DNA of 64,000 nucleotides from Thermoproteota archaeon (lineage in GTDB: Archaea > Korarchaeota > Korarchaeia > Korarchaeales > Korarchaeaceae), in the NCBI GenBank assembly GCA_026986575.1, contig JALSOH010000006.1, positions 440,153-504,152 on the forward strand, given 5' to 3'. Below, piece after piece: positions 2,653 to 30,183 of the stretch. The notes under the pieces are model-generated. The model was not told where the DNA came from. It did not search any database and was given only the letters and a program-made list of their open reading frames with translations. Positions within the stretch are counted from its first letter, which is position 1. The number at the start of each line of letters is the position of its first letter. The translations under genes and the position numbers were made by a program.

Positions 2653-4140
2653 ATGTCTTGGCGGAGGATAGCTGAGGTCGTTGCTAGGGAAGCAGCCTAC
2701 AGGTCGAGGAGGGAGGCTGAAAGGAGCCTCCGCTTCTTCAGGATGAGCGGAGGGAGCATGCTCAAGTACAACGCGTTCCTCCTCGCTGTGTTTACCTTCA
2801 TGTCCTCCATGATCGGCCTGAGCGCCTTCAGCGGGCCCGAGGTGGCATATCTAACCCTGATAATGCTGTTCCTGATGGAGATCCTTATGGGAGTGCTATT
2901 CATGGCCCTCAACCTCCAAGTACTCGTCTCGGACAGGCTCCTCGATCCGATATTCCACCTCCCGGTGAGCGAGCCTGAGATAAGGAGGGCGCTCCTCTGG
3001 GTGGGCATCTACTGGGGAGGCGCCGCCTTACCCTTCGTCCTGATTCCCGGGGCTGCCGTGGAGTCCTACCTCTTAAGAGATCCCCTCATCCTGGTGGGGG
3101 CGATAATGGGCTCACTCATCGCCTTGGTCCTGTCAATGGCCCTCGGCTACTTGGCAGGTTCTCTAGCCACTAGGTACACGAGGAGTCTTAAGGGAAGGGC
3201 CGTCTCCACGGTAGTTTGGCTCCTAGTCCTGAGCGTGGGATTCATCATGGGCCCCCTTATGGACGCTGTCTCCCAGCTCTACGAGGGCGGAGCCGTTCAA
3301 GCTCTGTACATGGTACCCCCGATAAGCTTTGCAGTGATGTTCGAGAGCTCCGGGGCCCTGTTGTCCTCTCTTCTCCTAGTTCTAGTCTCATATATCCTAT
3401 TCAGGACTGGTACATCCAGATTCTGGAGGGTGGTCACGAGAGGAGAAGTCCCCTTGCCCAAGAGACCGGCTAAATGGAGCCTGAGTTTCGGTTTCACTGC
3501 CGCCTTAATGAAGGAGGTGAAGATGGCCACTAGGACACCCAGGATCTTCGCATCCATCATAATGTATTCCTTTATCTTCCCACTCGTCTTTATATTCCCC
3601 TTCTTCAGCGAGGGACTGCCACAGGGGTTTTCGGGTTTCCTCGCCCCCCTGGTCCTCGCGGTAGGGGGTCTCGGTGGCTTCTCCATCCTTTACCTTTACG
3701 TGATGGAAGCCTCTGGAGCCAAAACCCTATACTCGCTCCCCCTCACGAGGGGCAGGGTAGCCTTGGTGAAGTTTTACACATTCCTGACGGTAAACATGCC
3801 CGTAGCGATTCTGATAGCGGCAGCGCTCGCTGTGCTAATGCCCAACGGTGCAATACCCGCCCTCATATATCTGGCAGCCCTCTCCGGATCAGCCCTACTA
3901 AATTCACTGACCTACGCTCTTCTCTTACCGAAGGAACCCTCCCACTGGTCCACCGAGACCTTCGGCAGAACTCTCGTGGCGGTACTCTTCCTGATAGAGG
4001 GGATGGCCTACTTCTCCGTGGGAATCGCCTCCCTCTTCCTGCCTAATGGGCTCCGGGCTACTACTTCCCTCATCACCTTAGCAGCGATCTGGATCGTGGA
4101 TTCGATCCTCCTCACCGTGAGTGGAAGGAGGGCCTTGTAA
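2653..4140 (+). CDS. ABC-2 type permease, multi-pass membrane protein
   Basis: 495 aa, about 12 hydrophobic segments, directly after the ABC ATPase, GGTGA RBS. Confidence 0.8.
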   Translation: MSWRRIAEVVAREAAYRSRREAERSLRFFRMSGGSMLKYNAFLLAVFTFMSSMIGLSAFSGPEVAYLTLIMLFLMEILMGVLFMALNLQVLVSDRLLDPIFHLPVSEPEIRRALLWVGIYWGGAALPFVLIPGAAVESYLLRDPLILVGAIMGSLIALVLSMALGYLAGSLATRYTRSLKGRAVSTVVWLLVLSVGFIMGPLMDAVSQLYEGGAVQALYMVPPISFAVMFESSGALLSSLLLVLVSYILFRTGTSRFWRVVTRGEVPLPKRPAKWSLSFGFTAALMKEVKMATRTPRIFASIIMYSFIFPLVFIFPFFSEGLPQGFSGFLAPLVLAVGGLGGFSILYLYVMEASGAKTLYSLPLTRGRVALVKFYTFLTVNMPVAILIAAALAVLMPNGAIPALIYLAALSGSALLNSLTYALLLPKEPSHWSTETFGRTLVAVLFLIEGMAYFSVGIASLFLPNGLRATTSLITLAAIWIVDSILLTVSGRRAL

Positions 4141-5527
4141 CTTCCCTCTCCCCCTTACTCTCCATCTCCGACTCTGAAGAGGGCCAAAGCAGGTCCTCCC
4201 TGAGGGAGCCCATCAGGCACACGTATGATATGAAGATCCCCAAGCTCATTACCATTAGTGAGGGCTCCACCAAGTAGGTCAGCCAGACGTTCCCGTATGG
4301 ATTGGGGGAGTAAGGACCGGGCGGGTTCCCGAGCATGTACAGGTTCACGGATATGGCCGCTGCACCGAAGCCCAGCAAGGAGAACCATCCTCCTAGCTTG
4401 ACCCACTTGGACGTCCCTAGGAGGTCGGCGGGCCAGCTCAGGTATATCAAGAGGACGATGATCCCCCACATGCCCACCAGGATGTGCCAGTGTCCCACGT
4501 TGTAGGCCAGCTCGGCCCAATCCCACAGGGGATCTCTGAAGGGTGGGTTGAAGAAGAGGGGCTTCCTCAAGCTCATGGCTACCAAGGCACCGGGAATCGT
4601 GACCGACAGCCACATTATCGCATTACCGGTGAGGAGCCCCCACTTCAAACTATCTCCCTTTGCCTTGAGGCTGAGGAGAGTTGTCCCTACCAGCAGGATG
4701 AGGGCTGCTGGAGTTATGATCACATGGGCCACCTTTCCGAACGGCCAGACGGCGAAGCTAGCCACTGCAGCCATTAGCTGTCCCAGCCATATCAGGTGGA
4801 GGGCTAGCCTAGACACCCCCCTCTCTTCCACCCTCAGGAGGCTCACTGCTACCAGGAAGACCAAGCTAAGGGCTAGGAGAAGCATCGCGTGCTCGTGAGC
4901 AGTAAGAGCCCTCCAAAGGGAATCCTCCTCCGCAAGATCGGGATTGAACCGCGCCTCGATGAGGGCCTTCAATAAACCCGATCTCCCCTCCATGAAACTG
5001 GATCCTAGGTAACCTCCGATCACGGAGCCAGCGAGCATGAGAACGCCAGATAACCTTAGGTTGGATTCAAGCAGGTTATGGGGATGAAGCCTCAAAACTG
5101 TCAGCAATCCGGCTAGGAATATGGCAGCAAGGCCTGTTATGAATAGCCCATGCCACAGGTGGAAGGATCCGGCGTAGGAGTAAGCGAGCCCCCCTAAAAC
5201 TGTAAGGACAGAGCCCACGGAGAACAGGTTTATTAAATCATTTCCCAGTCTCATCCTCGTTATCAAAGGTATCATGGAGGCATAAATGAGTAGAGAGAAG
5301 ATTGTGTGGTAGATGAAGGTTATCCTGGCTAAGTACTCTTCTCCTTCATTTATCGAAATTATCTCAGCCGCCCCTACGCTCTCATTATATCTACTACCTG
5401 GGAGGTGAACGGGCAATCCCAAGTGAACCCTCACTTCGGTGAACTGTGGAGAGAGAATTACTAGAAAGCCTACTACTAGGACCAGTAGTGTCGACGAGAG
5501 AGCAATGTGGAAGCGGAGTTCATTCAT
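4112..5527 (-). CDS. 12-TM His-rich membrane protein, heme-copper-oxidase/NnrS-like architecture
   Basis: About 12 TM segments with His motifs YH, WH, AHEH, AH and GHWH. CDS is solid; the functional call is inference. Confidence 0.7.
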   Translation of the reverse strand: MNELRFHIALSSTLLVLVVGFLVILSPQFTEVRVHLGLPVHLPGSRYNESVGAAEIISINEGEEYLARITFIYHTIFSLLIYASMIPLITRMRLGNDLINLFSVGSVLTVLGGLAYSYAGSFHLWHGLFITGLAAIFLAGLLTVLRLHPHNLLESNLRLSGVLMLAGSVIGGYLGSSFMEGRSGLLKALIEARFNPDLAEEDSLWRALTAHEHAMLLLALSLVFLVAVSLLRVEERGVSRLALHLIWLGQLMAAVASFAVWPFGKVAHVIITPAALILLVGTTLLSLKAKGDSLKWGLLTGNAIMWLSVTIPGALVAMSLRKPLFFNPPFRDPLWDWAELAYNVGHWHILVGMWGIIVLLIYLSWPADLLGTSKWVKLGGWFSLLGFGAAAISVNLYMLGNPPGPYSPNPYGNVWLTYLVEPSLMVMSLGIFISYVCLMGSLREDLLWPSSESEMESKGEREVTRPSFHSR

Positions 5528-5564
5528 GAGATCCCCCTCTTCTTCCTGTTCAGACTTATTAACA

Positions 5565-5576
5565 TGACACCTGTCA
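5565..5576. promoter_or_regulatory. Palindromic operator TGACA-N2-TGTCA, copy 1
   Basis: TGACACCTGTCA about 40 bp upstream of the 5527 start; the same motif recurs at 6121-6132. Confidence 0.5.
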
Positions 5577-5643
5577 AATTGATGTAAGCTCGATGACCGA
5601 TACGCTTCGGCGAGTAGTGAATCGAACTATCGGTTTGAACAGA

Positions 5644-5937
5644 TTATCTCTTGAGGCGATTCTCCAACTCATTCAATACTTCATCAAAATCCTTACCTCT
5701 CCTAATGAGATCACCGATCTGGATCACCAATCTTTCTATCTCCGAGAACGTACCCTCGTCAAATTTCGTGTTAAGAATATAGTTTATGAGGGCGCCTATC
5801 CTCTCCGGATCCCCTGAGATCTCTTGCAGGTTTCTTAGTTCCTCAACTATAGCGCTTTCCCTCATCCTTCTGTATTTGTCCTCGCTATCACTTCTCAAAG
5901 CTTCCTCCCAAGATTTGAAGAAGCCCATATTCATCAT
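5644..5937 (-). CDS. Hypothetical small helical protein
   Basis: 97-aa ORF with E/R/K-rich thermophile-like composition. Confidence 0.65.
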   Translation of the reverse strand: MMNMGFFKSWEEALRSDSEDKYRRMRESAIVEELRNLQEISGDPERIGALINYILNTKFDEGTFSEIERLVIQIGDLIRRGKDFDEVLNELENRLKR

Positions 5938-6090
5938 GAATAGGCGAAAGCTAGACTTAATAATGTAATCTTAGGCGCGCATTCCTCATGAAAACGAGGC
6001 TGGACAAGAATGGAGGTGAGATGATCTCCTGGGGTCCTAGAAAGAAAGTGTGAGATTACTAACAATATAAACCTGAACCTAGAATTTGAA

Positions 6091-6104
6091 TTAGGTTAAC
6101 CTAA
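6091..6104. promoter_or_regulatory. DtxR/MntR-type metal-responsive operator
   Basis: Perfect palindrome TTAGGTTAACCTAA upstream of the DUF438 gene; matches the TTAGG-N4-CCTAA geometry of DtxR-family boxes. Confidence 0.6.
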
Positions 6105-6119
6105 ACTTTAATAGGTAAT

Positions 6120-6133
6120 ATGACACATGTCAT
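6120..6133. promoter_or_regulatory. Palindromic operator TGACA-N2-TGTCA, copy 2
   Basis: ATGACACATGTCAT immediately before the likely start codons (6135-6144). Confidence 0.5.
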
Positions 6134-6143
6134 AATGATGGCT

Positions 6144-7454
6144 ATGAGCAGGCAGGAGTGGATGGAGGAGAAGCTTGATCAGGTGAGGGAGATCCTTAAG
6201 GAGCTACACAAGGGTGCAGATTTTGAGGAACTCAAAGAGAGGTTCAGGGAGGTACTTCGCGGCGTATCCCCATGGGAAATACCCTTGGTGGAGCAGGAAC
6301 TGGTGGCCCAAGGCATCTCTCCCCTTGAGATAGCCGCTCTCTGCGATCTCCACGTCGCCCTCTTCAGGGAATCTCTTATGGACTCCCGCTTGGAGGGTAT
6401 CGAACCGGGTCACCCTCTGGACACATTCCTTAGGGAGAACGAGGAGATCCTCAAAGACTCTGAGAAGCTCATGCTCTACGCGAACTCCCTCCCCAAGGTA
6501 GAGGGAGGCAGCAGGAAGGAGGTGTTCGATCAACTCAGTAAACTCGCCTCGGAGCTGAGGGGGATAAGGAGGCACTTTGTTCGATTACAGTTCCTTCTCT
6601 TCCCCTACATAGAGAGGAGAGGACTAACTGCGGTTCCGAGAGTTCTCTGGACGAAGCAGGATCAGGTAATGGCAAAGATAAGGAAACTGAACCAGATACT
6701 ATCCGAGGGGAAGTTGGAGGATGCGGAGTACATATTGGAACTCAGGTCCCTCTCGGACGAGCTCTCTAGGGCATTGGTGGACATGGTGTTCAGGGAGAAC
6801 AGGATACTCTATCCGACTGTCAGGATCCTACTGAGCGAGGAAGAGTGGTCCGCCGTCAAGCTGGAAGAGCCCGAGGTGGGTTACTACAAGGTCGAGCCTA
6901 GAGAGGGCTGGGAGCCCAAGGATCCGGTGTACCCTCACGAGGTGGAGTCGGGCATAACCGAGGAGCAGATATCCCGCATGCCCGAGGAAATGAAGGCTAT
7001 GACCTCCCTCATGGAAAAAAGGGACGATCACGTACTGGTGAGGGCTGGCGACTTGGAGCTGAAAAACGGTTACATCTCCCTGAAGGAGATGGACGCCCTC
7101 CTGAGGACCTTACCCTTTGAGATAACCTTCGTGGATGCTGATGACAGGCTCCGCTACTACAATTACAGGCCGGGACTCATATTCTACCGCTCGAGGACGG
7201 TGCTGGGGAGAAAGGTGGAACTCTGCCACCCGCCGGGCAGCGTCCACATAGTGAAGAAGATCGTGGAGGAGTTCAGAGCGGGCAAGAGGGATGTGGCTGA
7301 GTTCTGGATAGATATGGGGGGAAGAAAAGTGTACATAAGGTACTTCCCCGTCAGGGGGGAGGACGGCGAGTACCTTGGAACGGTGGAGGTGGTTCAGGAC
7401 ATTACCGACATAAAGGGGATAGAAGGGGAGAAGAGACTTCTAGGCGAGGCCTGA
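6144..7454 (+). CDS. DUF438 + hemerythrin-like + PAS_10 domain protein
   Basis: LHKG...EIPLVEQELV...LCDLH (DUF438); GHPL..F..EN and LFPY/FRENRILYP (hemerythrin-like); EITFVDADD..RYYN..V.LCHPP (PAS_10). Start uncertain (6120-6144). Confidence 0.9.
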   Translation: MSRQEWMEEKLDQVREILKELHKGADFEELKERFREVLRGVSPWEIPLVEQELVAQGISPLEIAALCDLHVALFRESLMDSRLEGIEPGHPLDTFLRENEEILKDSEKLMLYANSLPKVEGGSRKEVFDQLSKLASELRGIRRHFVRLQFLLFPYIERRGLTAVPRVLWTKQDQVMAKIRKLNQILSEGKLEDAEYILELRSLSDELSRALVDMVFRENRILYPTVRILLSEEEWSAVKLEEPEVGYYKVEPREGWEPKDPVYPHEVESGITEEQISRMPEEMKAMTSLMEKRDDHVLVRAGDLELKNGYISLKEMDALLRTLPFEITFVDADDRLRYYNYRPGLIFYRSRTVLGRKVELCHPPGSVHIVKKIVEEFRAGKRDVAEFWIDMGGRKVYIRYFPVRGEDGEYLGTVEVVQDITDIKGIEGEKRLLGEA

Positions 7455-7480
7455 AATCGTGAAAATGCATTGGATGAAGG

Positions 7481-8179
7481 CTACCCCTCCAGATGGGCTC
7501 TCCTGCCCGAGACCTCCACATCACATCCTCCTTTCTTCACAGATACGATGGCCAGCTCGTTCTCAGCGAGCTCCCTCAGGGAGAGCGATAACGTCCCACA
7601 GGAGAGCTTAACCGTGCTCGTCCAGTTCAGGACGTAAATGCCATCCATCAATTTGATGTACTTGAGGCCTTGGACGGGCTGCCTCCAGTTGGTAAATATG
7701 CCCCTCGTATATATCACCTGGGGAGGGACTAGCCTGTGTTCAGAGCAATCTGGGATCTCCACGGATTCATTGGCCACTTTGACCGCAGCGCCCTCAGGCA
7801 TCCTGAGGAGCAGGACGGGTGTGTGGACGTACATGTCCATGAGCCTCTTATAGAAGGTCACATTCCTCTCAAGGATTACCTCATCTCCCTCCATTATCTC
7901 AATGGGAATCTCCTTCCTGATCTCCACATCAGCGGGGAAGAAAACCCAATATCTCAGGAGAGCGTAGCACTCACCGTCGCATGATATCAGAGCGGTCTCG
8001 ACGGAGGCGCTCCTACTCCCTGAGCTGCACCACCTAGTAAGCAGCTCATCCGCTGGAGGCCACGATACGGGGAGCTCCTCAATATCGGCCTTCTTAGGTC
8101 CGTTGACCGAGGAGTAGGCTAGGGCGATTAGCAGGAGGGCCGCTGCCACCACCAGAACTATCGCAACTGTCCTTATCAT
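7481..8179 (-). CDS. Hypothetical membrane-anchored extracellular protein
   Basis: N-terminal hydrophobic anchor, six Cys, 232 aa. Confidence 0.7.
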   Translation of the reverse strand: MIRTVAIVLVVAAALLLIALAYSSVNGPKKADIEELPVSWPPADELLTRWCSSGSRSASVETALISCDGECYALLRYWVFFPADVEIRKEIPIEIMEGDEVILERNVTFYKRLMDMYVHTPVLLLRMPEGAAVKVANESVEIPDCSEHRLVPPQVIYTRGIFTNWRQPVQGLKYIKLMDGIYVLNWTSTVKLSCGTLSLSLRELAENELAIVSVKKGGCDVEVSGRRAHLEG

Positions 8180-8309
8180 GAAACGACCGTGAGGCGCCTC
8201 TTACATCAGATAAAAGGCTGGCGCCTCGTCAACCTTAAATTGGTCCTACAGGACGATGGCCCTATGACAGGTGACCTCCTTTGGCCCTGATTTAAAGGAG
8301 GGTAATCGC

Positions 8310-9482
8310 ATGTCCCCGAATCAGGAGTTCAGAGTGACGCCTTGGGAAGTCGAGGGGCTAGTGGACTACGACCGCCTGATAAAGGAGTTCGGCACTAAGC
8401 CCCTAACTGAGGACCTCATCGAGAAGACGAGGGAGCTCACCAAGAGCGAACTTCCGCTCTTACTAAGGAGGAGGTTCTTCTTCTCCCACAGGGACTACGA
8501 CTTGGTGCTGAAGGACTACGAGAAGGGTAGGGGTTTCTTCCTCTATACGGGAAGGGGACCCTCCGGTCCGATGCACATAGGACACATAATCCCCTTCTAC
8601 ATGACCAAATGGTTCCAAGAGAAGTTCGGAGTGAACCTCTACATCCAGATAACGGACGACGAGAAGTTCGTGTTCAAGCCGGAGCTGAACTTCGAGGAAA
8701 CGAAGAGGTGGGCCTACGAGAACATCCTAGACATAGCGGCAGTGGGCTTCGACCCCGACAGAACCTTCATATTTCAAGATAGTGAGTACACCGAGATATA
8801 CGAGCTGGCTGTCCCCATCTCCAAGAAGATAACGTTCTCCACGGCCAAGGCCGTGTTCGGATTCACTGAGAGCAGCAAGATAGGGATGATATTCTTCCCT
8901 GCAGTTCAGGCGGCCCCGACCTTCTTCGAGAGGAGGAGGTGTCTCATACCTGCCGCAATAGATCAGGACCCTTACTGGAGGATCCAGAGGGATGTGGCCG
9001 AAAGCTTGGGCTACTACAAGACCGCCGCCATACACGGAAAGTTCTTCCCGCCTCTCACAGGACTGTCGGGGAAGATGAGCGCCAGCATGCCTGAGACGGC
9101 GATATACCTGACAGATGATCCCGAAACGGTGAGGAAGAAGATATGGAAGTTCGCCTTAACCGGCGGACAAGCGACGGTGCAGGAGCAGAGGGAGAAAGGG
9201 GGTAATCCGGAGAAATGCGTGGTCTTCAAGTGGCTCGAGATGTTCTTCGAGCCCGATGACGAGAAGCTACTGCAGAGGTACGAGGACTGCAAGTCCGGCA
9301 AGCTGCTATGCGGGGAGTGCAAGAATTACCTCATAGAGAAGGTGCAGAGCTTCCTGAAGGAGCATCAGGAGAGGAGGAAGAGGGCCGAGCCATTGGTGAG
9401 GCAGTTCAAGTATACGGGGAAGCTGGCCAGGGAGATGTGGGAGCGATCCATACCCAAAGAGCTGAGAGGAGGAGAGGTATAA
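8310..9482 (+). CDS. trpS: Tryptophan--tRNA ligase (canonical archaeal type)
   Basis: VTPWEV, YTGRGPS, HIGH, IQITDDEK, AIDQDPYWR, KMSAS, TGGQ..EQREKGG, CGECK. Confidence 0.97.
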   Translation: MSPNQEFRVTPWEVEGLVDYDRLIKEFGTKPLTEDLIEKTRELTKSELPLLLRRRFFFSHRDYDLVLKDYEKGRGFFLYTGRGPSGPMHIGHIIPFYMTKWFQEKFGVNLYIQITDDEKFVFKPELNFEETKRWAYENILDIAAVGFDPDRTFIFQDSEYTEIYELAVPISKKITFSTAKAVFGFTESSKIGMIFFPAVQAAPTFFERRRCLIPAAIDQDPYWRIQRDVAESLGYYKTAAIHGKFFPPLTGLSGKMSASMPETAIYLTDDPETVRKKIWKFALTGGQATVQEQREKGGNPEKCVVFKWLEMFFEPDDEKLLQRYEDCKSGKLLCGECKNYLIEKVQSFLKEHQERRKRAEPLVRQFKYTGKLAREMWERSIPKELRGGEV

Positions 9483-23901: not shown

Positions 23902-24168
23902 TCAACCACCCTCCGAGGCCAGCTCTCCCCTCTCCTCCAACTCCTTTGCTAGCTTTTCCACATCCTCCGGCGATCCGGCAGTGAGCAACACGTAACCGAT
24001 CCATCCCAGAACCACCAGCAGCACTAATACGATTAAGAGAGCTGTCAGCTTCAAAGTGAGGGTCGGGATCGGCTCTGGCGCCAGGAAAAGCAGGTAAATA
24101 TATAGCGCGGCTGCTACGGCAGAGATCACGATCAAGAGGAAACCCAGAAGTTTCTCCTTCATCTCCAA
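23902..24168 (-). CDS. Small 2-TM conserved archaeal membrane protein
   Basis: Two TM helices, WIGY motif, acidic tail; abuts the thrC start. Confidence 0.75.
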   Translation of the reverse strand: MEMKEKLLGFLLIVISAVAAALYIYLLFLAPEPIPTLTLKLTALLIVLVLLVVLGWIGYVLLTAGSPEDVEKLAKELEERGELASEGG

Positions 24169-24255
24169 TCGGAGGGTAAGGAGATCAAGATAATATAACT
24201 TTGGGGCCTCTCACCGCAGTGACCTTTAATGTAGAAGGCTTTGAATTCCTTAGAG

Positions 24256-24879
24256 ATGACATTGTCCGTGGACAGGAAACTCTGGGTCAGAAGGAGGGAA
24301 AGCACTCTAGCTGAGCTTAGATCGCATATGGAGGCGGGGAGGGTGGACGAGGACGTTATCTCGCTACTTAACATCATAAACTCGCTGGATTACGCCTTCA
24401 CCACCAGCAGCTGCTCTGGCAGGATTCAGGTGTATGCGGCCAACGAGCCCGGAGAAAAGTTCGGCATCAGGACCTTGGGGAAGTGGCACTCTCCTATAAC
24501 TCCAAGAGAATTGACGGAGACGCTGGAAGATAAGGCTGACTCCATATGGCTTGCAGTCCTCCCCCCTATAGTTCATATAGCGGTCTGCAGCGTGAAGGCG
24601 GCCTTCCACCTGCTGGGACTGCTGAGGTCGGCTGGCTTCAAGAGGGCCGGGATAATCTCCGCATCGGAGGACGGGATCACTTTGGAGGCAATAGGCACCG
24701 AGAGGATGGAAGCTCCCCTGAGGCTGTCCGGTGTGGACATCTTCAGGGAGGATGCGATCCCCTTAATAGTTGAGAGGGCCAACTCACTACTGATCAGGTC
24801 GAAGAGGAGGATCCTCAGACTTGAGGAGGTGCTGATGGGTGAGATTGCCGGAGGCTTGGATAATCTCTGTTGGGAATGA
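24256..24879 (+). CDS. taw3: tRNA wyosine biosynthesis methyltransferase Taw3/Tyw3
   Basis: VDEDV, FTTSSCSGRI, KWH, PPIVH, AGFKRAG. Confidence 0.92.
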   Translation: MTLSVDRKLWVRRRESTLAELRSHMEAGRVDEDVISLLNIINSLDYAFTTSSCSGRIQVYAANEPGEKFGIRTLGKWHSPITPRELTETLEDKADSIWLAVLPPIVHIAVCSVKAAFHLLGLLRSAGFKRAGIISASEDGITLEAIGTERMEAPLRLSGVDIFREDAIPLIVERANSLLIRSKRRILRLEEVLMGEIAGGLDNLCWE

Positions 24880-25669
24880 ACTGCTGAACGGTAGGATAGT
24901 GAATACGAACCTAAGCTGGCTTGCGAGGAAGCTCACTATAGATGGATACCTAGTGAGGGCCGCTATAGCCGTTAGGGACGATTGTAATGACATCGTATGG
25001 GCGTTCAGGACCGCTCTTGATAGGGGAGCTGATCTAGTGATCTCCACAGGTGGGCTGGGTCCCACGTTCGATGACAAGACATCAGAGTGCCTAAGCAAGG
25101 CGCTGGGGAGGAGGCATGTGGTGAACGAGGAAGCACTTAGAATGGTGGAGGAGAAGTACAGGGAGAGAAACCTCCCCATGACAGAGCACAGGGTGAAGAT
25201 GGCTATGATGCCTGAAGGGGCCGAACCAATAAAGAACGAAGTGGGAACGGCACCGGGCATCTTGGTCAGGGAGAGGGACGCGCTGATAATAGTGCTGCCT
25301 GGCGTTCCCAAGGAGATGAAGGACATATTCGAGAGGGTTGAACCCCTGATCAGGGAGAGGGCTCCTCCCCTCCACTACGTAAGCAAGGACTTGGTGGTGA
25401 GAGGAGTGCCAGAATCGGCTGCCGCTCCTCTCATTGAGAGGGTGATGAAGGAATTCCCTGTCTACATAAAGAGCCACCCTCATGGCCACGAGATCCGAAA
25501 GCCCGTGCTGAAGATAAACATCACCGCCTCATCTCCTGAAGGGGATGAGGCAGAGAGGATCGTGGAAGCAGCGCTGGAAAAGCTTAAGGATCTCCTGATC
25601 GAGGAGGGAGGGGAAGTAGAGGGTATAGAGGATGCCGAACAGGGTGAAGCTGATAGTTCTCGACCTTGA
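24839..25669 (+). CDS. CinA-like molybdopterin-binding domain protein
   Basis: IISVGNELLNG.IVNTN, STGGLGPTFDD.T, GTAPG, LPGVPKEM, YIKSHP. Confidence 0.9.
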   Translation: MRLPEAWIISVGNELLNGRIVNTNLSWLARKLTIDGYLVRAAIAVRDDCNDIVWAFRTALDRGADLVISTGGLGPTFDDKTSECLSKALGRRHVVNEEALRMVEEKYRERNLPMTEHRVKMAMMPEGAEPIKNEVGTAPGILVRERDALIIVLPGVPKEMKDIFERVEPLIRERAPPLHYVSKDLVVRGVPESAAAPLIERVMKEFPVYIKSHPHGHEIRKPVLKINITASSPEGDEAERIVEAALEKLKDLLIEEGGEVEGIEDAEQGEADSSRP

Positions 25670-26129
25670 TCAGGTGCTCTGGGATCATCACGACGCCACC
25701 TCCCTCGCCCTTCCCCTCAGGAGGGTCGACGAGAGGACCTTAGTCGACGCCTCTGGCGACAAGGTCGTTCTGAGGGAAGGGGTCAGGGACTTCCTGGAGA
25801 GGGCCAAGGATAAGGGGATTTACTTATCCACCTGCAGCTGGAACGAGCCGGATAAGGCAATAGCTGTCCTGAGGACCTTTCAACTTGATCGATACTTCGA
25901 CCTGCTGATGATAGAGCCCCACCCAGAGAAGGATCGAATGATGGAGAAGATACTGAATCACTTCACCCCCAAGGGAGTGAAGGAGGAAGAGACGGTATTC
26001 GTGGATGATAAGGAGGAGATGCTAGAGAGGGTCAGGAGGAGGTACCCGAAGATCAGGACCCTCAGGTTTCATCCCGATGGGGATGTGCACAGCTTCCCTG
26101 ACTTGAAGAGGATAATACTGGGTGAATGA
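25632..26129 (+). CDS. Magnesium-dependent phosphatase-1 (HAD IIIC)
   Basis: DLDQVLWDH, SWN, IEPHPEK, FVDD. Confidence 0.88.
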   Translation: MPNRVKLIVLDLDQVLWDHHDATSLALPLRRVDERTLVDASGDKVVLREGVRDFLERAKDKGIYLSTCSWNEPDKAIAVLRTFQLDRYFDLLMIEPHPEKDRMMEKILNHFTPKGVKEEETVFVDDKEEMLERVRRRYPKIRTLRFHPDGDVHSFPDLKRIILGE

Positions 26130-27255
26130 CATGATTCCCGGCTTCAGGATAACGCCATGGGAGGTAAGTGGAGATACGGTAGATTACAACTCGCTGATCT
26201 CCCTCTTCGAGCTGGATGTCGTGACGACTGAGGTTAGGAACCTCTTCCAAGAGGTCTTCGGGGAGGAACACTACCTCATCTCTAGGGGCATATTCTACGC
26301 CCATCGCTTCCTTAGGCTCGCTCTTCTGGACCTCAAGTACAACAGAGCCAAGGTCTACATCTTCACAGGCCGTGGTGCATCGGGCCCGATGCACATAGGC
26401 CACCTCATACCAGTGAACCTCGCGAAATGGATGCAGGAGAGGCTAGGTCTCCACTTCTTCTTCCAGATATCTGACGACGAGAAGTTCGTCCTGAGGCCCG
26501 ATCTGGGATTGAAACAGGTGAGGAAGTACGCCTTGGGCAACGCTTTGGACTTCGTAGCGCTGGGATTCGATGAGAAGAGGACCCACATAATCTGGGACAC
26601 GCAGGTAGCTTCATGGCTCTATCCTCTCACACTCAAGCTGGCCAAGAGGATATCTCTGTCCGAGCTAAAGAACTTGGTAAAGATAGACGACTCTTGGAAC
26701 GTGGGAGTGGCCTTCTACTCCGTAGTGCAGTCGATGCCCGCCCTCATGATGGAGATGGAATTGAACGAACCTTACCGCGCCCTTGTACCCATGGCAGTGG
26801 ATCAGGACCCGCTCATGAGGGTTTCCGTACTCATAGCGGATAAGATGGGGCTCAGGAAGCCCGGAATGATCCACAGCAAGTTCCTCCTTGGACTTAAGGG
26901 AGAGCCCAAGATGGGGACCAGGTATCCCGAGTCAGCCATCTTCCTCACCGATCCGCCCGAGGTGGTGAGGGAAAAGATAGAGGGATCCGCCTGTGGTCCT
27001 CCGAGGAGGTGCCCAGCCCTGTCCTACCTGAGGGCCTTCGATCCGGATGATGAGTCCTTCTTCTCCATATGGGAGGTCTGCTTCAACGATCCGGAGGAGG
27101 GATGTAAGCTGGCGAAGAAGAGGGCTATAGAGGTGCTGGTCCCCTTCATCGAGGAGCATCAGATGAGGAGGAAGGAGATGAGGGATAAAGTCGACGAGTA
27201 TCTCATGAAGGAACCTCCCATCCCCTTGGATAAGTCGTTGGATCCGAGGGACTGA
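26122..27255 (+). CDS. Divergent second tryptophanyl-tRNA synthetase paralogue
   Basis: ITPWEV, FTGRGAS, HIGH, FQISDDEK, AVDQDPLMR; KMGTR in place of KMSAS. Confidence 0.9.
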   Translation: MNDMIPGFRITPWEVSGDTVDYNSLISLFELDVVTTEVRNLFQEVFGEEHYLISRGIFYAHRFLRLALLDLKYNRAKVYIFTGRGASGPMHIGHLIPVNLAKWMQERLGLHFFFQISDDEKFVLRPDLGLKQVRKYALGNALDFVALGFDEKRTHIIWDTQVASWLYPLTLKLAKRISLSELKNLVKIDDSWNVGVAFYSVVQSMPALMMEMELNEPYRALVPMAVDQDPLMRVSVLIADKMGLRKPGMIHSKFLLGLKGEPKMGTRYPESAIFLTDPPEVVREKIEGSACGPPRRCPALSYLRAFDPDDESFFSIWEVCFNDPEEGCKLAKKRAIEVLVPFIEEHQMRRKEMRDKVDEYLMKEPPIPLDKSLDPRD

Positions 27256-27302
27256 CCGGATAAGGTTAAAGCTCACGACCTCTCTCTTTACTGAGGGTTA
27301 TC

Positions 27303-28025
27303 ATGAGCGTCGAGATCGTCGAGACCGCGCCGGAGGTAAAGAACCCCATTCTCATCTTGGCGGTTCCCGGTGCCGGCCTCGTGAGCATAATAGCGGCCGA
27401 TCACCTCATCAAGGTCGCTGACCTTAAGGAGGTCGGCAGGATAGATTCTCCCCTGTTTCCTCCTGTCATAGGCGTGAAGGACGGCGTCGCCATGCACACC
27501 GTCAAGATCTACGGGGGAAAGGGGCTGTATGTGGTCAAGGCCGAAGTACCCCTCCCCATAGACCCCCTCCTGAAGCTTACAATATCTGTACTGGACTGGA
27601 TCGCCAGGAAGAGACCCAAGCTAGCGATAGTAATGGGAGGAGTCCCCGAGGAGGATAGAATAAAGGTGGAGAAGCCTCAGGTAATGGCCGTATTCAGCAG
27701 CGAGGAGGCCAAGTCCTTGGCGGAGGGCATGGGTGGTGAGCTGATGAAGGAGGGGTACTTGAGTGGATACGCGGCCTTCTTCCTCAGGGAAGCTAGCAGG
27801 AGGGGAGTTCCGGCTGCGGCCCTCATGGTGCAGAGCTTCGCCGCCTATCCAGATCCCGGAGCAGCTGCAGAGGTCCTCAAGGCCATAGAGCCTATCTTGG
27901 GCTTCGATGTCGATATAAGCCAGCTGGAAGCCGAATCAGAGACGATAAGGCTCAAACTGAAGGAACTGATGGCCAAGACCGTCCAGACGGCGAAGGAGGC
28001 CCCGGCTCCCATGTATATAGGTTGA
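27303..28025 (+). CDS. Proteasome assembly chaperone (PAC2/PbaB family)
   Basis: PGAGLVS.IA, YPDPGAAA, C-terminal MYIG (HbYX-like). Confidence 0.9.
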   Translation: MSVEIVETAPEVKNPILILAVPGAGLVSIIAADHLIKVADLKEVGRIDSPLFPPVIGVKDGVAMHTVKIYGGKGLYVVKAEVPLPIDPLLKLTISVLDWIARKRPKLAIVMGGVPEEDRIKVEKPQVMAVFSSEEAKSLAEGMGGELMKEGYLSGYAAFFLREASRRGVPAAALMVQSFAAYPDPGAAAEVLKAIEPILGFDVDISQLEAESETIRLKLKELMAKTVQTAKEAPAPMYIG

Positions 28026-28038
28026 GGGGGGATGCCGT

Positions 28039-28374
28039 ATGGATTGGTTCTACAGGGAGGTCAGGTGGGGATACTTCTCTGTTAGGGATGTGGAGGAGCC
28101 CCTCCACGAGGTCAAGGTTACTAAGGAGGGCGTAGTCATAACAATGGACCTTCCCGGGGTGAGGAAGGAGGAGCTCGTCATAAGAGCAAGCGAGGATGCC
28201 ATTCTGGTGGAGGCCACGTCGAAGGTCGGGGGAGCGACCGTGAGGTACAGGAAGCTGATTAGGACCCCGATACCCATAGATCCTGACAGGGTGGTGGCGA
28301 GGCTGACCAACGGGATACTCCAGATAGTCGCTCCACCAAAGGAGGTCGGCTTCAGGAGGGTGAAGGTGGAGTAG
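28039..28374 (+). CDS. Small heat-shock protein Hsp20
   Basis: MDLPGVRKEEL, A.LTNGILQI, C-terminal VKVE. Confidence 0.92.
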   Translation: MDWFYREVRWGYFSVRDVEEPLHEVKVTKEGVVITMDLPGVRKEELVIRASEDAILVEATSKVGGATVRYRKLIRTPIPIDPDRVVARLTNGILQIVAPPKEVGFRRVKVE

Positions 28375-30183
28375 ATGAGGGACATGTTATTCATTGAGGT
28401 GGCGAAGTACTACGAGAGGATAGAAGCCACATCCGGCAGGCTAGAGATGATAGACTACCTCAAGAAGCTCTTCTTGGAGACTCCTCCGGAGATACTGGAT
28501 AAAGTGGTCTACCTCACGCTTGGAAGCATAGCTCCCGCCTACGAGGGAGTCGAGCTCGGGGTAGGGGAGAAGCTCCTCCTCAAGTCCCTCTCGATGGCCA
28601 CGGGCATATCTCAGAACAAGCTAGAGGCCAAGTATCCAGAGCTGGGTGATATAGGGAAGCTGGCCGAGTGGGCCGTGGAGAACAAGGTGGCCCAGTCCTT
28701 CTTCACCGAGGACCTCACCGTGAACAGGGTCTTCGACACCCTAAGGAGGGTAGCAGAGATCGCAGGTGAGAAGGCCCAAGATGCCAAGATAAGGTTGCTA
28801 GCCGGACTGTTCAGCGATGCCAAGCCCCTAGAGGCCAGATACATAGCTAGAGTGGTGACGGAGAGGCTGAGGCTTGGAGTGAGGGACATGACAGTCTTGG
28901 ACGCCCTAGCGGAAGCCTTCCTCAAGGGGAGGGCCTTCAGGGACAAGTTAGAGAGGAAGTACAACATCTTCCCCGACATTGGTAGGATAGCGAAGATAGT
29001 GGCGGCTAGGGGCTTTGAGGGATTGGAGGAGATCAAACTCACCTTGGGAATACCTGTCAGGCCCATGTTAGCCCAGAGGCTCAGGTCCGCCCAAGAGATA
29101 ATGGATAAGATAGGGCCGAGGGTGTACGCGGAATTCAAGTATGATGGGGAGAGGATGCAGATCCACGTCTGGAAGGATGGAAAGGTCCAGATATTCTCCA
29201 GAAGGCTGGAGAACATTACTGAACCTTATCCGGACGTGAGAGAGTTTGTATCCAAGGCCGTGGAGGGTCACGATGTCGTGCTAGACAGCGAGACCGTGGC
29301 AGTGAACCCTGACACTGGAGAGATTCTCCCATTCCAGGAGCTGATGCACAGGAGGAGGAAGTACGGCGTGGAGGAGGCGATGAAGACCTATCCAACAGTG
29401 ACTTACGTGTTCGATGTGCTCTACTTAGACGGTAGAGAGCTTCTAGACGAACCGCTCGAGGAGAGGAGGAAGATCCTCCTCAATCTGCTGAAGGAGAACG
29501 AGAAAGCAAGGGTAGTCCAGTATGAGGTAGTGGATAACGATGTAGAGGAGCTGGAGAGGTTCTTCGAGCACGCGGTGGAGATGGGCACCGAAGGGCTAGT
29601 GGTGAAGGATCCCAAGTCCCAGTACCAAGCAGGGACTAGAGGATGGTCTTGGATCAAGCTCAAGAGGAGCTACATAAGTAAGATGGTGGAGCCGGTAGAT
29701 CTGGTGGTCGTGGGAGCCTTCTGGGGCAAGGGCAAGAGAGCTGGTACCTACGGCGCCCTCCTCATGGCCGCGTACTCTCCTGAGGAAGATGTGTTCAAGA
29801 CAGTGTGCAAGATGGGATCCGGCTTCACCGATGAGGAGCTCGCGGAGCTGCCTAAACTTCTGGAACCTTACAAGATAGAGCACAGGCACCCGAGCGTATT
29901 ATCTAATTTAGAGGCAGACGTCTGGTTCGTCCCTCAGAAGGTAGCTCAGGTGCTGGGAGACGAGATAACGCTCAGTCCCACCCACACCTGCGGCTGGGGT
30001 AAGGTGAAGAGGAACGCTGGGCTGGCGATAAGGTTCCCTAGGTTCATGGGATGGAGGGACGATAAGGGACCTCAGGATGCCACGACGGAGGAGGAGATTA
30101 TCCAGATGTATAAGATGCAGTTAACAACTGTTACAGATATAGAGGAACAGAAGTCTTCTATTTCAGAAAAAGATGAAAGATAA
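28375..30183 (+). CDS. lig: ATP-dependent DNA ligase
   Basis: EFKYDGERMQ, EGLVVK, WIKLK, DLVVVG, IRFPRF. Confidence 0.98.
   Translation: MRDMLFIEVAKYYERIEATSGRLEMIDYLKKLFLETPPEILDKVVYLTLGSIAPAYEGVELGVGEKLLLKSLSMATGISQNKLEAKYPELGDIGKLAEWAVENKVAQSFFTEDLTVNRVFDTLRRVAEIAGEKAQDAKIRLLAGLFSDAKPLEARYIARVVTERLRLGVRDMTVLDALAEAFLKGRAFRDKLERKYNIFPDIGRIAKIVAARGFEGLEEIKLTLGIPVRPMLAQRLRSAQEIMDKIGPRVYAEFKYDGERMQIHVWKDGKVQIFSRRLENITEPYPDVREFVSKAVEGHDVVLDSETVAVNPDTGEILPFQELMHRRRKYGVEEAMKTYPTVTYVFDVLYLDGRELLDEPLEERRKILLNLLKENEKARVVQYEVVDNDVEELERFFEHAVEMGTEGLVVKDPKSQYQAGTRGWSWIKLKRSYISKMVEPVDLVVVGAFWGKGKRAGTYGALLMAAYSPEEDVFKTVCKMGSGFTDEELAELPKLLEPYKIEHRHPSVLSNLEADVWFVPQKVAQVLGDEITLSPTHTCGWGKVKRNAGLAIRFPRFMGWRDDKGPQDATTEEEIIQMYKMQLTTVTDIEEQKSSISEKDER

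Follow-up and report, generated by a model that had tools for sequence, protein, structure and literature searches.

A Korarchaeum tryptophanyl-tRNA synthetase paralogue that keeps most of its catalytic residues and lacks the anticodon loop

The 64,000-nucleotide stretch of contig JALSOH010000006.1 analysed here (the window, to whose whole length all positions refer unless another contig is named) comes from genome G000 of the hot-spring korarchaeal genus Korarchaeum (g1) and carries two genes of the tryptophanyl-tRNA synthetase (TrpRS) family. WRS1 is a canonical trpS; WRS2, 17 kb downstream of it, encodes a divergent paralogue. We found that WRS2 is not the housekeeping TrpRS of this organism, a role that WRS1 holds, and that the motif differences between the two are not chance, because they are conserved across a WRS2 family reaching down to 46% identity. 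From the pattern of residues kept and lost, we tentatively favour, at somewhat less than even confidence, the reading that WRS2 would be an adenylate-forming TrpRS descendant whose recognition of its acceptor has changed. The two genes and the informative parts of WRS2 are as follows, with equivalent residues in human numbering.

8310–9482 (alternative GTG start at 8271), plus strand: WRS1, canonical Thermococcales-like trpS with YTGRG, KMSAS, the full anticodon loop and a C-x22-C-x6-C-x2-C motif
26131–27255 (alternative GTG start at 26122), plus strand: WRS2, divergent TrpRS-like paralogue of 374 amino acids
26362–26376, plus strand: FTGRG (residues 78–82), with Phe for Tyr159 and the Arg162 equivalent kept; YTGRG in WRS1
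26392–26403, plus strand: HIGH (residues 88–91); H[IL]GN in type B members of the family
26464–26484, plus strand: QISDDEK (residues 112–118), with the Gln194, Glu199 and Lys200 equivalents kept and Thr changed to Ser; QITDDEK in WRS1
26788–26832, plus strand: PMAVDQDPLMRVSVL (residues 220–234), with the Asp and Gln of AIDQ kept, a new invariant Met221, Leu-Met for Tyr-Trp and Val-Leu for Arg321/Asp322
26908–26922, plus strand: KMGTR loop (residues 260–264) replacing KMSAS, with Lys and Met invariant and Gly at the Ser351 equivalent
26980–27015, plus strand: short loop EGSACGPPRRCP (residues 284–295) that takes the place of helix α11 and of the α10–α11 loop, with Ser286 and Pro295 invariant and Cys288 at 91%
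27115–27117, plus strand: Lys329, by alignment Lys431 of human TrpRS, invariant in all 50 aligned sequences

WRS1 passes the NCBIfam TrpRS equivalog cut-off (739.8 versus 644 bits). WRS2, which is 38% identical to WRS1 (BLASTP, E 5e-79), stays below the cut-offs of all seven NCBIfam models that it matches, six for TrpRS and one for tyrosyl-tRNA synthetase (TyrRS). Its best score is 311.3 against a cut-off of 478 (NF008927); two further scores are 253.5 against 644 (NF008924) and 156.4 against 176.75 (TIGR00233). Residues 76–307 match the class Ic catalytic domain PF00579 (tRNA-synt_1b) at 69.6 bits, above the Pfam gathering cut-off of 21.1. We then surveyed 43 whole genomes of the phylum including G000, 21 from g1 and 22 from nine other genera. 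With matches at E 1e-80 or better, 17 of the 21 g1 genomes have WRS1; in G020 there is a fragment at a contig end, and the search gave no match in G026, G032 or G024.

To place the substitutions, we aligned 22 WRS2 sequences with 28 canonical archaeal TrpRS sequences. Of the 118 columns that are at least 85% conserved in the canonical enzymes, WRS2 keeps 52, switches 11 to a new conserved state and relaxes 55. All of the motif changes that the initial annotation had listed relative to the trpS at 8310 are present, namely FTGRG, DQDPLMR (DQDPYWR in WRS1), KMGTR and a replaced loop, with HIGH and Q..DDEK retained. Among the retained residues are those that contact the amino acid backbone, ATP and the adenylate. 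Invariant in all 50 aligned sequences are D115, D116, E117, K118, Q200, D224 and Q225, which take in the equivalents of Glu199, Lys200, Gln284, Asp312 and Gln313; the Arg162, Gln194, Lys349 and Met350 equivalents are likewise invariant or nearly so. In published structures Gln194 contacts the indole nitrogen, Glu199 and Gln284 the α-amino group, Lys200 the carboxylate, and Asp312 and Gln313 the ribose (PMC2831299, PMC2275098). On the strength of these retained amino acid-, ATP- and adenylate-binding residues, we infer that WRS2 is catalytically competent.

The catalytic machinery is thus kept almost whole. Tyr159, present in 28 of 28 canonical sequences, is Phe in 21 of 22 WRS2-family sequences, so that the Tyr159–Gln194 pair around the indole nitrogen is incomplete, the Gln194 equivalent itself being invariant. 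Placement of the YTGRG tyrosine in the indole pocket agrees with the structures, in which it both hydrogen-bonds to and stacks on the indole (PMC2831299, PMC2275098). Its replacement by Phe costs one hydrogen bond to the indole nitrogen while leaving stacking possible. The similar role that had been given to the aromatic residue after DQDPY could not be confirmed, as the main text of PMC2275098 has no 'Phe317'. Ser351, which binds the α- and β-phosphates (PMC2275098), is Gly in all 22 WRS2 sequences; the loop reads KMG[TA]x with Lys-Met invariant, and HIGH is kept in type A and becomes H[IL]GN in type B. Met221, which precedes AVDQ, is new and invariant. The suggestion that WRS2 activates a tryptophan analogue or another amino acid gains no support from this site, given that the backbone-binding residues and Gln194 are kept and that Phe is normal in bacterial TrpRS.

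The tRNA-binding surfaces are much more altered. Where WRS1 has FALTGGQATVQEQREKGGNPEKC, WRS2 has EGSACGPPRRC (26980–27012), leaving a 14-column gap that is found in 22 of 22 WRS2 sequences; the GG columns are 93–96% conserved in canonical TrpRS. The lost GG..GG segment had been assigned to the anticodon-binding region, and it does correspond to the loop and helix that wrap the anticodon. In human TrpRS, Phe377–His387 span the α10–α11 loop and helix α11, which supply Phe377, Ser378, Gly380, Arg381, Asp382, Ile384 and His387 as contacts to C34, C35 and A36 (PMC1538984). At the other end of the tRNA, the acceptor-stem contacts Arg321 and Asp322 (roles from PMC1538984), 100% conserved in the 28 canonical sequences, are Val/Leu and Leu in WRS2, and type B additionally lacks the Asp314 and Arg318 equivalents. 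The C-terminal domain is also more acidic, with net charges of −3.9 and −3.1 versus +1.3 (standard deviation 4.1) in the 28 canonical enzymes.

A structural model of the anticodon domain, which the initial annotation had proposed as a check, agrees with the alignment. The AlphaFold model of WRS2 (mean predicted local distance difference test score (pLDDT) 91.1, predicted template-modelling score (pTM) 0.90) has a helix at residues 276–284, a 10-residue loop and a helix at 295–303, with no helix α11 between them. The C-terminal helical domain (residues 276–357) is present and confidently modelled, and the anticodon loop alone is deleted from it. In Foldseek comparisons the model has template-modelling (TM) scores of 0.86–0.88 to Pyrococcus horikoshii TrpRS (3JXE) and 0.85–0.87 to the human and yeast enzymes; the predicted fold of WRS2 is thus the three-domain fold of archaeal and eukaryotic TrpRS.

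These observations suggest how WRS2 might work. Tryptophan, or an aromatic analogue very close to it, is most likely still the amino acid that WRS2 activates. It would no longer select tRNA-Trp in the canonical way, because several of the acceptor-stem contacts are gone, as are the loop and helix responsible for reading C34 and C35. The activated amino acid may instead pass to a differently chosen acceptor, which could be a tRNA read with relaxed anticodon specificity, another RNA or a non-RNA acceptor. Something may still bind at the old anticodon site, as suggested by the invariance of Lys329 and the conservation of the replacement loop.

We searched the host genome for tRNA genes using Rfam, ARAGORN and a T-arm scan. 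These gave 46 genes, each with a different anticodon, including one tRNA-Trp(CCA); for two intron-bearing genes the anticodon was identified by eye, and intron-rich or split tRNAs could escape such searches. None of the 46 has a UCA, CUA or UUA anticodon that would mark a second partner. The sole tRNA-Trp(CCA) gene (contig C6, about 329718–329860, outside the window) has two introns, the first within the D-loop region and the second at 37/38; the Rfam tRNA search did not detect this gene, and ARAGORN miscalled it tRNA-Met. An intron-bearing tRNA-Ile(UAU), one of those read by eye, lies at C4:126484–126591. Orphan tRNA 3′ halves at C4 about 161854–161973 and 162876–162942 are 92–94% identical to the 3′ half of tRNA-Arg(GCG) (C4:177694–177772) and look like attachment-site repeats of an integrated element. 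As a repeat of the tRNA-Arg(GCG) 3′ end, such a half was rejected as a tRNA partner of WRS2.

WRS2 forms a sharply bounded family. Among 5.8 billion clustered proteins, 27 WRS2 clusters lie at 46–100% identity, after which identity drops to 38–39% for canonical archaeal TrpRS. The five clusters that carry an NCBI name appear there as hypothetical proteins of Korarchaeota or Korarchaeum; the Joint Genome Institute calls one cluster tryptophanyl-tRNA synthetase. A profile built from the 22 WRS2 sequences and run against 1.84 billion representative proteins found a single family representative (716 bits) and no family member beyond it. A match at 345 bits is a double-length tandem TrpRS; the remaining single-domain matches reach at most 290 bits, and the two inspected are canonical TrpRS. 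In the phylum survey, 19 of the 21 g1 genomes gave a WRS2-type match (E 1.8e-96 or better), and none of the 22 genomes of the nine other genera did. The two g1 genomes with no match are G017, in which a contig ends inside the MDP1 gene just upstream of the expected site, and G024, which is 70% complete.

Within g1 the family is under purifying selection. The ratio of nonsynonymous to synonymous substitution rates (dN/dS) against G000 is 0.019–0.057 for WRS2 (7 pairs), compared with 0.038–0.053 for WRS1 (5 pairs) and 0.020–0.053 for the nearby DNA ligase. In the type B half of the family it is 0.105–0.169 for WRS2 and 0.041–0.086 for WRS1. By domain, the catalytic part of WRS2 is the most constrained (0.03–0.13, against 0.07–0.48 for the C-terminal part); the corresponding values for WRS1 are 0.015–0.03 and 0.02–0.17. 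Of the 19 genomes with WRS2, 18 have its reading frame unbroken, and 86 columns are invariant across the family. WRS2 has nevertheless diverged further than WRS1: copies across g1 are 46–97% identical, versus 78–95% for WRS1, and in the tree the path between G000 and G014-like genomes is about 5 times longer for WRS2. We found no compositional mark of transfer in third-position GC content (0.74 for WRS2, 0.77 for WRS1 and 0.62–0.76 for neighbours).

Two types can be distinguished. Type A, which is G000-like, has HIGH, DQDP and four cysteines (288, 294, 317 and 325) in 12 of 14 cluster representatives. Ancestral positions of the C-x22-C-x6-C-x2-C motif, which WRS1 carries in full, account for three of the four; Ala stands at the remaining ancestral position, and Cys288 is a new cysteine. 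In type B the motifs read H[IL]GN and DQH[PA] (DQHA in 1 of 8 representatives), and there are two cysteines only. The TrpRS of P. horikoshii and Thermotoga maritima bind an Fe-S cluster at the four-cysteine motif; a metal site in WRS2 is conjecture.

The two copies appear to have different origins. WRS1 is 75–81% identical to the TrpRS of Thermococcus and Palaeococcus and groups with them in our tree (SH-like approximate likelihood-ratio test (SH-aLRT) support 94). Because this identity is as high as that among WRS1 copies within g1, lateral transfer between the korarchaeal genus and Thermococcales, in either direction, is likely. The TrpRS of 11 other Korarchaeota genomes are 52–66% identical to WRS1 and 35–39% identical to WRS2. 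In the larger tree (69 rows, posterior mean site frequency (PMSF) model), WRS2 forms a clade with 100% support, whose stem measures about 1.8 changes per site and which the free tree leaves unplaced. We examined its placement with approximately unbiased (AU) tests on a 34-row set under LG+G4. Constraining WRS2 with WRS1 and Thermococcales was 31.7 log-likelihood units worse (p 0.04), and constraining it with genus g4 was 46 units worse (p 0.012). Constraining it with the TrpRS of genera g5/g6 or of genera g8–g10 was, respectively, 9.7 and 1.7 units better than the free search. A recent duplication of WRS1 is thus disfavoured (p-AU 0.04) and was probably not the source of WRS2. WRS2 may instead descend from the older, native TrpRS of Korarchaeota, whose function the WRS1 lineage would have taken over. 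An extended form of this reading is possible, and we regard it as less likely than the reading we favour: the displaced native TrpRS would have been repurposed to activate tryptophan, or something like it, for a non-canonical acceptor (a different RNA, a modified nucleoside, a protein or a small molecule), with Ser286-x-Cys288...Pro295 and Lys329 forming the new recognition site. If true, no TrpRS descendant with a new function would have been described in archaea before this one.

TrpRS is unusually fluid in Korarchaeota, with at least three very different forms in one phylum. In each genome examined from genera g2 and g3, PF00579 is represented by just two proteins, one of them a TyrRS and the other a highly divergent TrpRS-like protein (G011:C1:86900–88300, G013:C4, G012:C1 and also G005:C51). 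The latter is 31–34% identical to WRS1. It has LTGIKPTG...HLGT for YTGRG...HIGH and FAIADIEAWE for FQxTDDEKF, and the Tyr159, Gln194 and Lys200 equivalents are gone. It keeps the full FTGGRETAxxQRxLGG anticodon loop and four cysteines, the reverse of the WRS2 pattern. If it is the sole TrpRS of these organisms, its tryptophan pocket must be differently built.

Several observations weigh against a changed acceptor or a displaced native enzyme. The exchange of Tyr159 for Phe is mild, as bacterial TrpRS has Phe at this position (PMC2831299). Lys329, the equivalent of a C35 contact described as strictly conserved in all TrpRS (PMC1538984), is invariant, and the shortened loop resembles that of bacterial TrpRS, which has no helix α11, is thought to read mainly C35 and yet charges tRNA-Trp (PMC1538984). 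Because Lys329 is kept and bacterial TrpRS works without helix α11, canonical charging with weaker reading of C34 is possible. In G026, which is 96% complete, WRS1 has no match; its expected place is about 5 kb past a contig end, and if it is truly absent, WRS2 must be the working TrpRS there. In G014, assembled as a single contig, a 23-bp tandem duplication (C1:381200–394200, at about 5943–6080, minus strand) shifts the WRS2 frame and removes about 30 C-terminal residues, the remaining DNA being 96% identical to the intact G018 gene; full-length WRS2 may therefore be dispensable in at least one lineage. Finally, the placement of WRS2 is subject to its long stem, to likely long-branch effects, to a marginal AU p of 0.04 and to the choice of constraint groups after the first tree.

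A genuine auxiliary TrpRS is the leading alternative, one that is possible and that we hold less likely than the favoured reading. Such an enzyme would still make Trp-tRNA-Trp under special conditions, such as iron or redox stress or exposure to a natural TrpRS inhibitor, using a minimal, bacterial-like anticodon site that reads mainly C35 and A36. Enzymes of this sort are known in bacteria (PMC9437257), and bacterial TrpRS functions without helix α11 (PMC1538984). The retained catalytic residues and Lys329, the invariant Ser286 and Pro295 of the loop, the strong purifying selection and the missing WRS1 match in G026 all fit, as does the contrast between the four-cysteine motif of WRS1 and the two cysteines of type B WRS2. 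The tRNA contacts fit poorly: those of Arg321/Asp322 are gone in all members, and those of the Asp314/Arg318 equivalents in type B as well. The 55 relaxed and 11 switched columns out of 118, the more acidic C-terminal domain and the roughly fivefold faster evolution relative to WRS1 also count against it, and the 10 neighbouring proteins scanned include no antibiotic-type cluster and no nitric oxide synthase gene.

It is less likely again that WRS2 is a regulatory or chaperone-like paralogue that binds tRNA or forms adenylate and does not aminoacylate. The precedent is LeuRS-I, a duplicated leucyl-tRNA synthetase (LeuRS) of Sulfolobaceae, which binds tRNA and forms the adenylate, does not aminoacylate and is needed for optimal growth (PMC9437257); WRS2 similarly combines a conserved core with altered tRNA contacts. 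That the catalytic domain is its most constrained part, however, fits catalysis better than mere binding.

We consider it improbable that WRS2 works solely as a heterodimer with WRS1, in the manner of a pseudo-dimer, with the WRS1 anticodon domain holding the tRNA and the WRS2 active site charging it. Class Ic enzymes do bind tRNA across the dimer, which makes the arrangement conceivable. WRS1, however, is fully canonical and needs no partner, the genes lie apart rather than in one unit, and the acceptor-stem contacts that the WRS2 subunit would have to provide are the altered ones. When mapped by hand, one of the two interface salt bridges of P. horikoshii TrpRS, Lys130–Glu163, corresponds to Arg131–Pro165 in WRS2, and a new invariant Trp162 and a near-invariant Trp155 fall in the same interface region.

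The failed equivalog cut-offs, the fast divergence between the two halves of the genus and the frameshifting duplication in G014 could be taken to mean that WRS2 is a functionless, decaying remnant of a displaced TrpRS, which we judge very improbable: all but one of 19 genomes have an unbroken frame, dN/dS is 0.02–0.17 and 86 columns are invariant. The selection data, the intact frames and the conserved gene row (below) rule out a decaying copy. They bear out the view of the initial annotation that this is a remodelled paralogue free of decay, and of the lineage-restricted, decaying and unlinked copy that it had set against that view, only the restriction to one genus is found.

We next compared WRS2 with known systems. 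It shares with canonical TrpRS (P. horikoshii 3JXE; human tRNA complexes 2AKE and 2AZX) the three-domain fold, the N-terminal TPWEV hairpin, HIGH, AIDQ, the Lys-Met of the KMSAS loop and the Gln194, Glu199, Lys200, Gln284 and Lys431 equivalents; it differs in having Phe159 and Gly351 and in lacking helix α11, the GG loop and Arg321/Asp322. Deinococcus TrpRS II and the indolmycin-resistant TrpRS1 of Streptomyces likewise stand as second, divergent copies beside a housekeeping enzyme (PMC9437257). These are of bacterial type, whereas WRS2 matches 1YI8 and 2A4M at E 7.8e-6 and 1e-5 versus 1e-58 for 3JXE. TrpRS II retains tryptophan aminoacylation, and resistant copies protect antibiotic producers from self-poisoning (PMC9437257). 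LeuRS-I is, like WRS2, a divergent class I duplicate of an archaeal thermophile, with adenylation intact and an unclear role (PMC9437257), but it belongs to another enzyme family and has a disrupted editing domain and an acidic C terminus, whereas WRS2 has its anticodon loop deleted. The double-length TyrRS pseudo-dimer of trypanosomatids also contains a class Ic copy with catalysis in which anticodon reading is lost; that copy is fused to a complementary partner, whereas WRS2 is separate from a fully canonical WRS1. The WRS2 profile search found no relatives of this double-copy type above canonical scores. An Entamoeba histolytica TrpRS homologue (3HZR; Foldseek rank 44, TM 0.82) is also a TrpRS-fold paralogue of unsettled function, but is just 18% identical to WRS2. 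GluQRS, cyclodipeptide synthases and amino acid:carrier-protein ligases have no anticodon-binding domain, whereas WRS2 keeps its C-terminal helical domain.

In the table of duplicated and synthetase-like proteins of a 2022 review, the synthetase-like entry for TrpRS is empty (PMC9437257). Our literature search, whose coverage excluded subscription journals, returned nothing on a TrpRS paralogue in Korarchaeota. Duplication of aminoacyl-tRNA synthetases has repeatedly given rise to new enzymes and to orthogonal synthetase/tRNA pairs. In the present case the catalytic core of an archaeal-type TrpRS has stayed under strong selection for as long as the genus has existed, while its anticodon reader was lost. 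This is a natural experiment on acceptor change in a class Ic enzyme, and it may show the fate of a native synthetase whose housekeeping duty has passed to a second enzyme. Genetic-code engineers would also take an interest in a thermostable TrpRS scaffold whose anticodon reading is relaxed.

WRS2 lies in a row of seven closely packed plus-strand genes at 24241–30183, called from open reading frames with concordant Pfam and NCBIfam naming. Its six companions are as follows.

24256–24879 (alternative TTG start at 24241), plus strand: Taw3/TYW3-family methyltransferase (PF02676, 124 bits)
24839–25669, plus strand: CinA N-terminal-type (MoCF_biosynth) protein (NF002291, 360 bits)
25632–26129, plus strand: MDP-1-like HAD-IIIC phosphatase, MDP1 (TIGR01685, 106 bits)
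27303–28025, plus strand: PAC2 proteasome-assembly chaperone
28039–28374, plus strand: Hsp20 small heat-shock protein
28375–30183, plus strand: ATP-dependent DNA ligase

The first four genes had been described as overlapping at their ends. This holds for Taw3/CinA (41 nt) and CinA/MDP1 (38 nt). An 8-nt MDP1/WRS2 overlap depends on GTG 26122 as the WRS2 start. ATG 26131 is the likelier start, because 22 of 22 aligned family members begin M-[IL]-P-[GS]-F and GGTGA lies 4–8 nt upstream of this ATG; the junction is then likelier to read TGA-c-ATG, with a 1-nt spacer that is still compatible with coupling. A search for sequencing runs turned up five DNA holders, spread over two studies, and none for RNA.

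Synteny across relatives, where conserved linkage had been expected, shows that the row taw3-cinA-MDP1-WRS2-PAC2-hsp20-ligase is kept in g1. MDP1 immediately precedes WRS2 in 16 of the 17 g1 loci that reach that far upstream, and PAC2 follows it in 17 of 18. The exception to both counts is G023, which keeps WRS2 and has no MDP1 anywhere. Outside g1 the neighbours are separable: Taw3 homologues occur without WRS2 in genera g4, g8, g9 and g10, and MDP1 does so in g2, g6, g7 and g10. Five genomes from four other genera have CinA and PAC2 on separate contigs, and in them neither Taw3 nor MDP1 has a match within 1.5 kb of CinA. PAC2 and Hsp20 stay paired there, with the ligase alongside in 3 of 4 loci. 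Because its neighbours are separable and it continues into a proteasome chaperone, a small heat-shock protein and a DNA ligase, the row looks like operon packing rather than a pathway. A functional tie of WRS2 with taw3, CinA and MDP1 is unsupported, as Taw3 and MDP1 occur without WRS2 and MDP1 is missing in G023, and the role in tRNA modification that had been proposed from the proximity of taw3 is correspondingly weak.

In G007, a genome from a different family, a distance of 2.8 kb separates the only TrpRS from an MDP-1-like phosphatase and a second DNA ligase (C1:272000–284000, at 3978–8353). This ligase is a distinct paralogue, 31% identical to the one in the window; the arrangement faintly echoes the MDP1-WRS2...ligase row and is one post-hoc coincidence. 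Divergently upstream of taw3 are a pyridoxal phosphate-dependent enzyme (PF00291; 22804–23901, minus strand) with a Cys-rich N-terminal start and an 88-residue hydrophobic protein (23902–24168, minus strand), and this pair also adjoins the row in close relatives.

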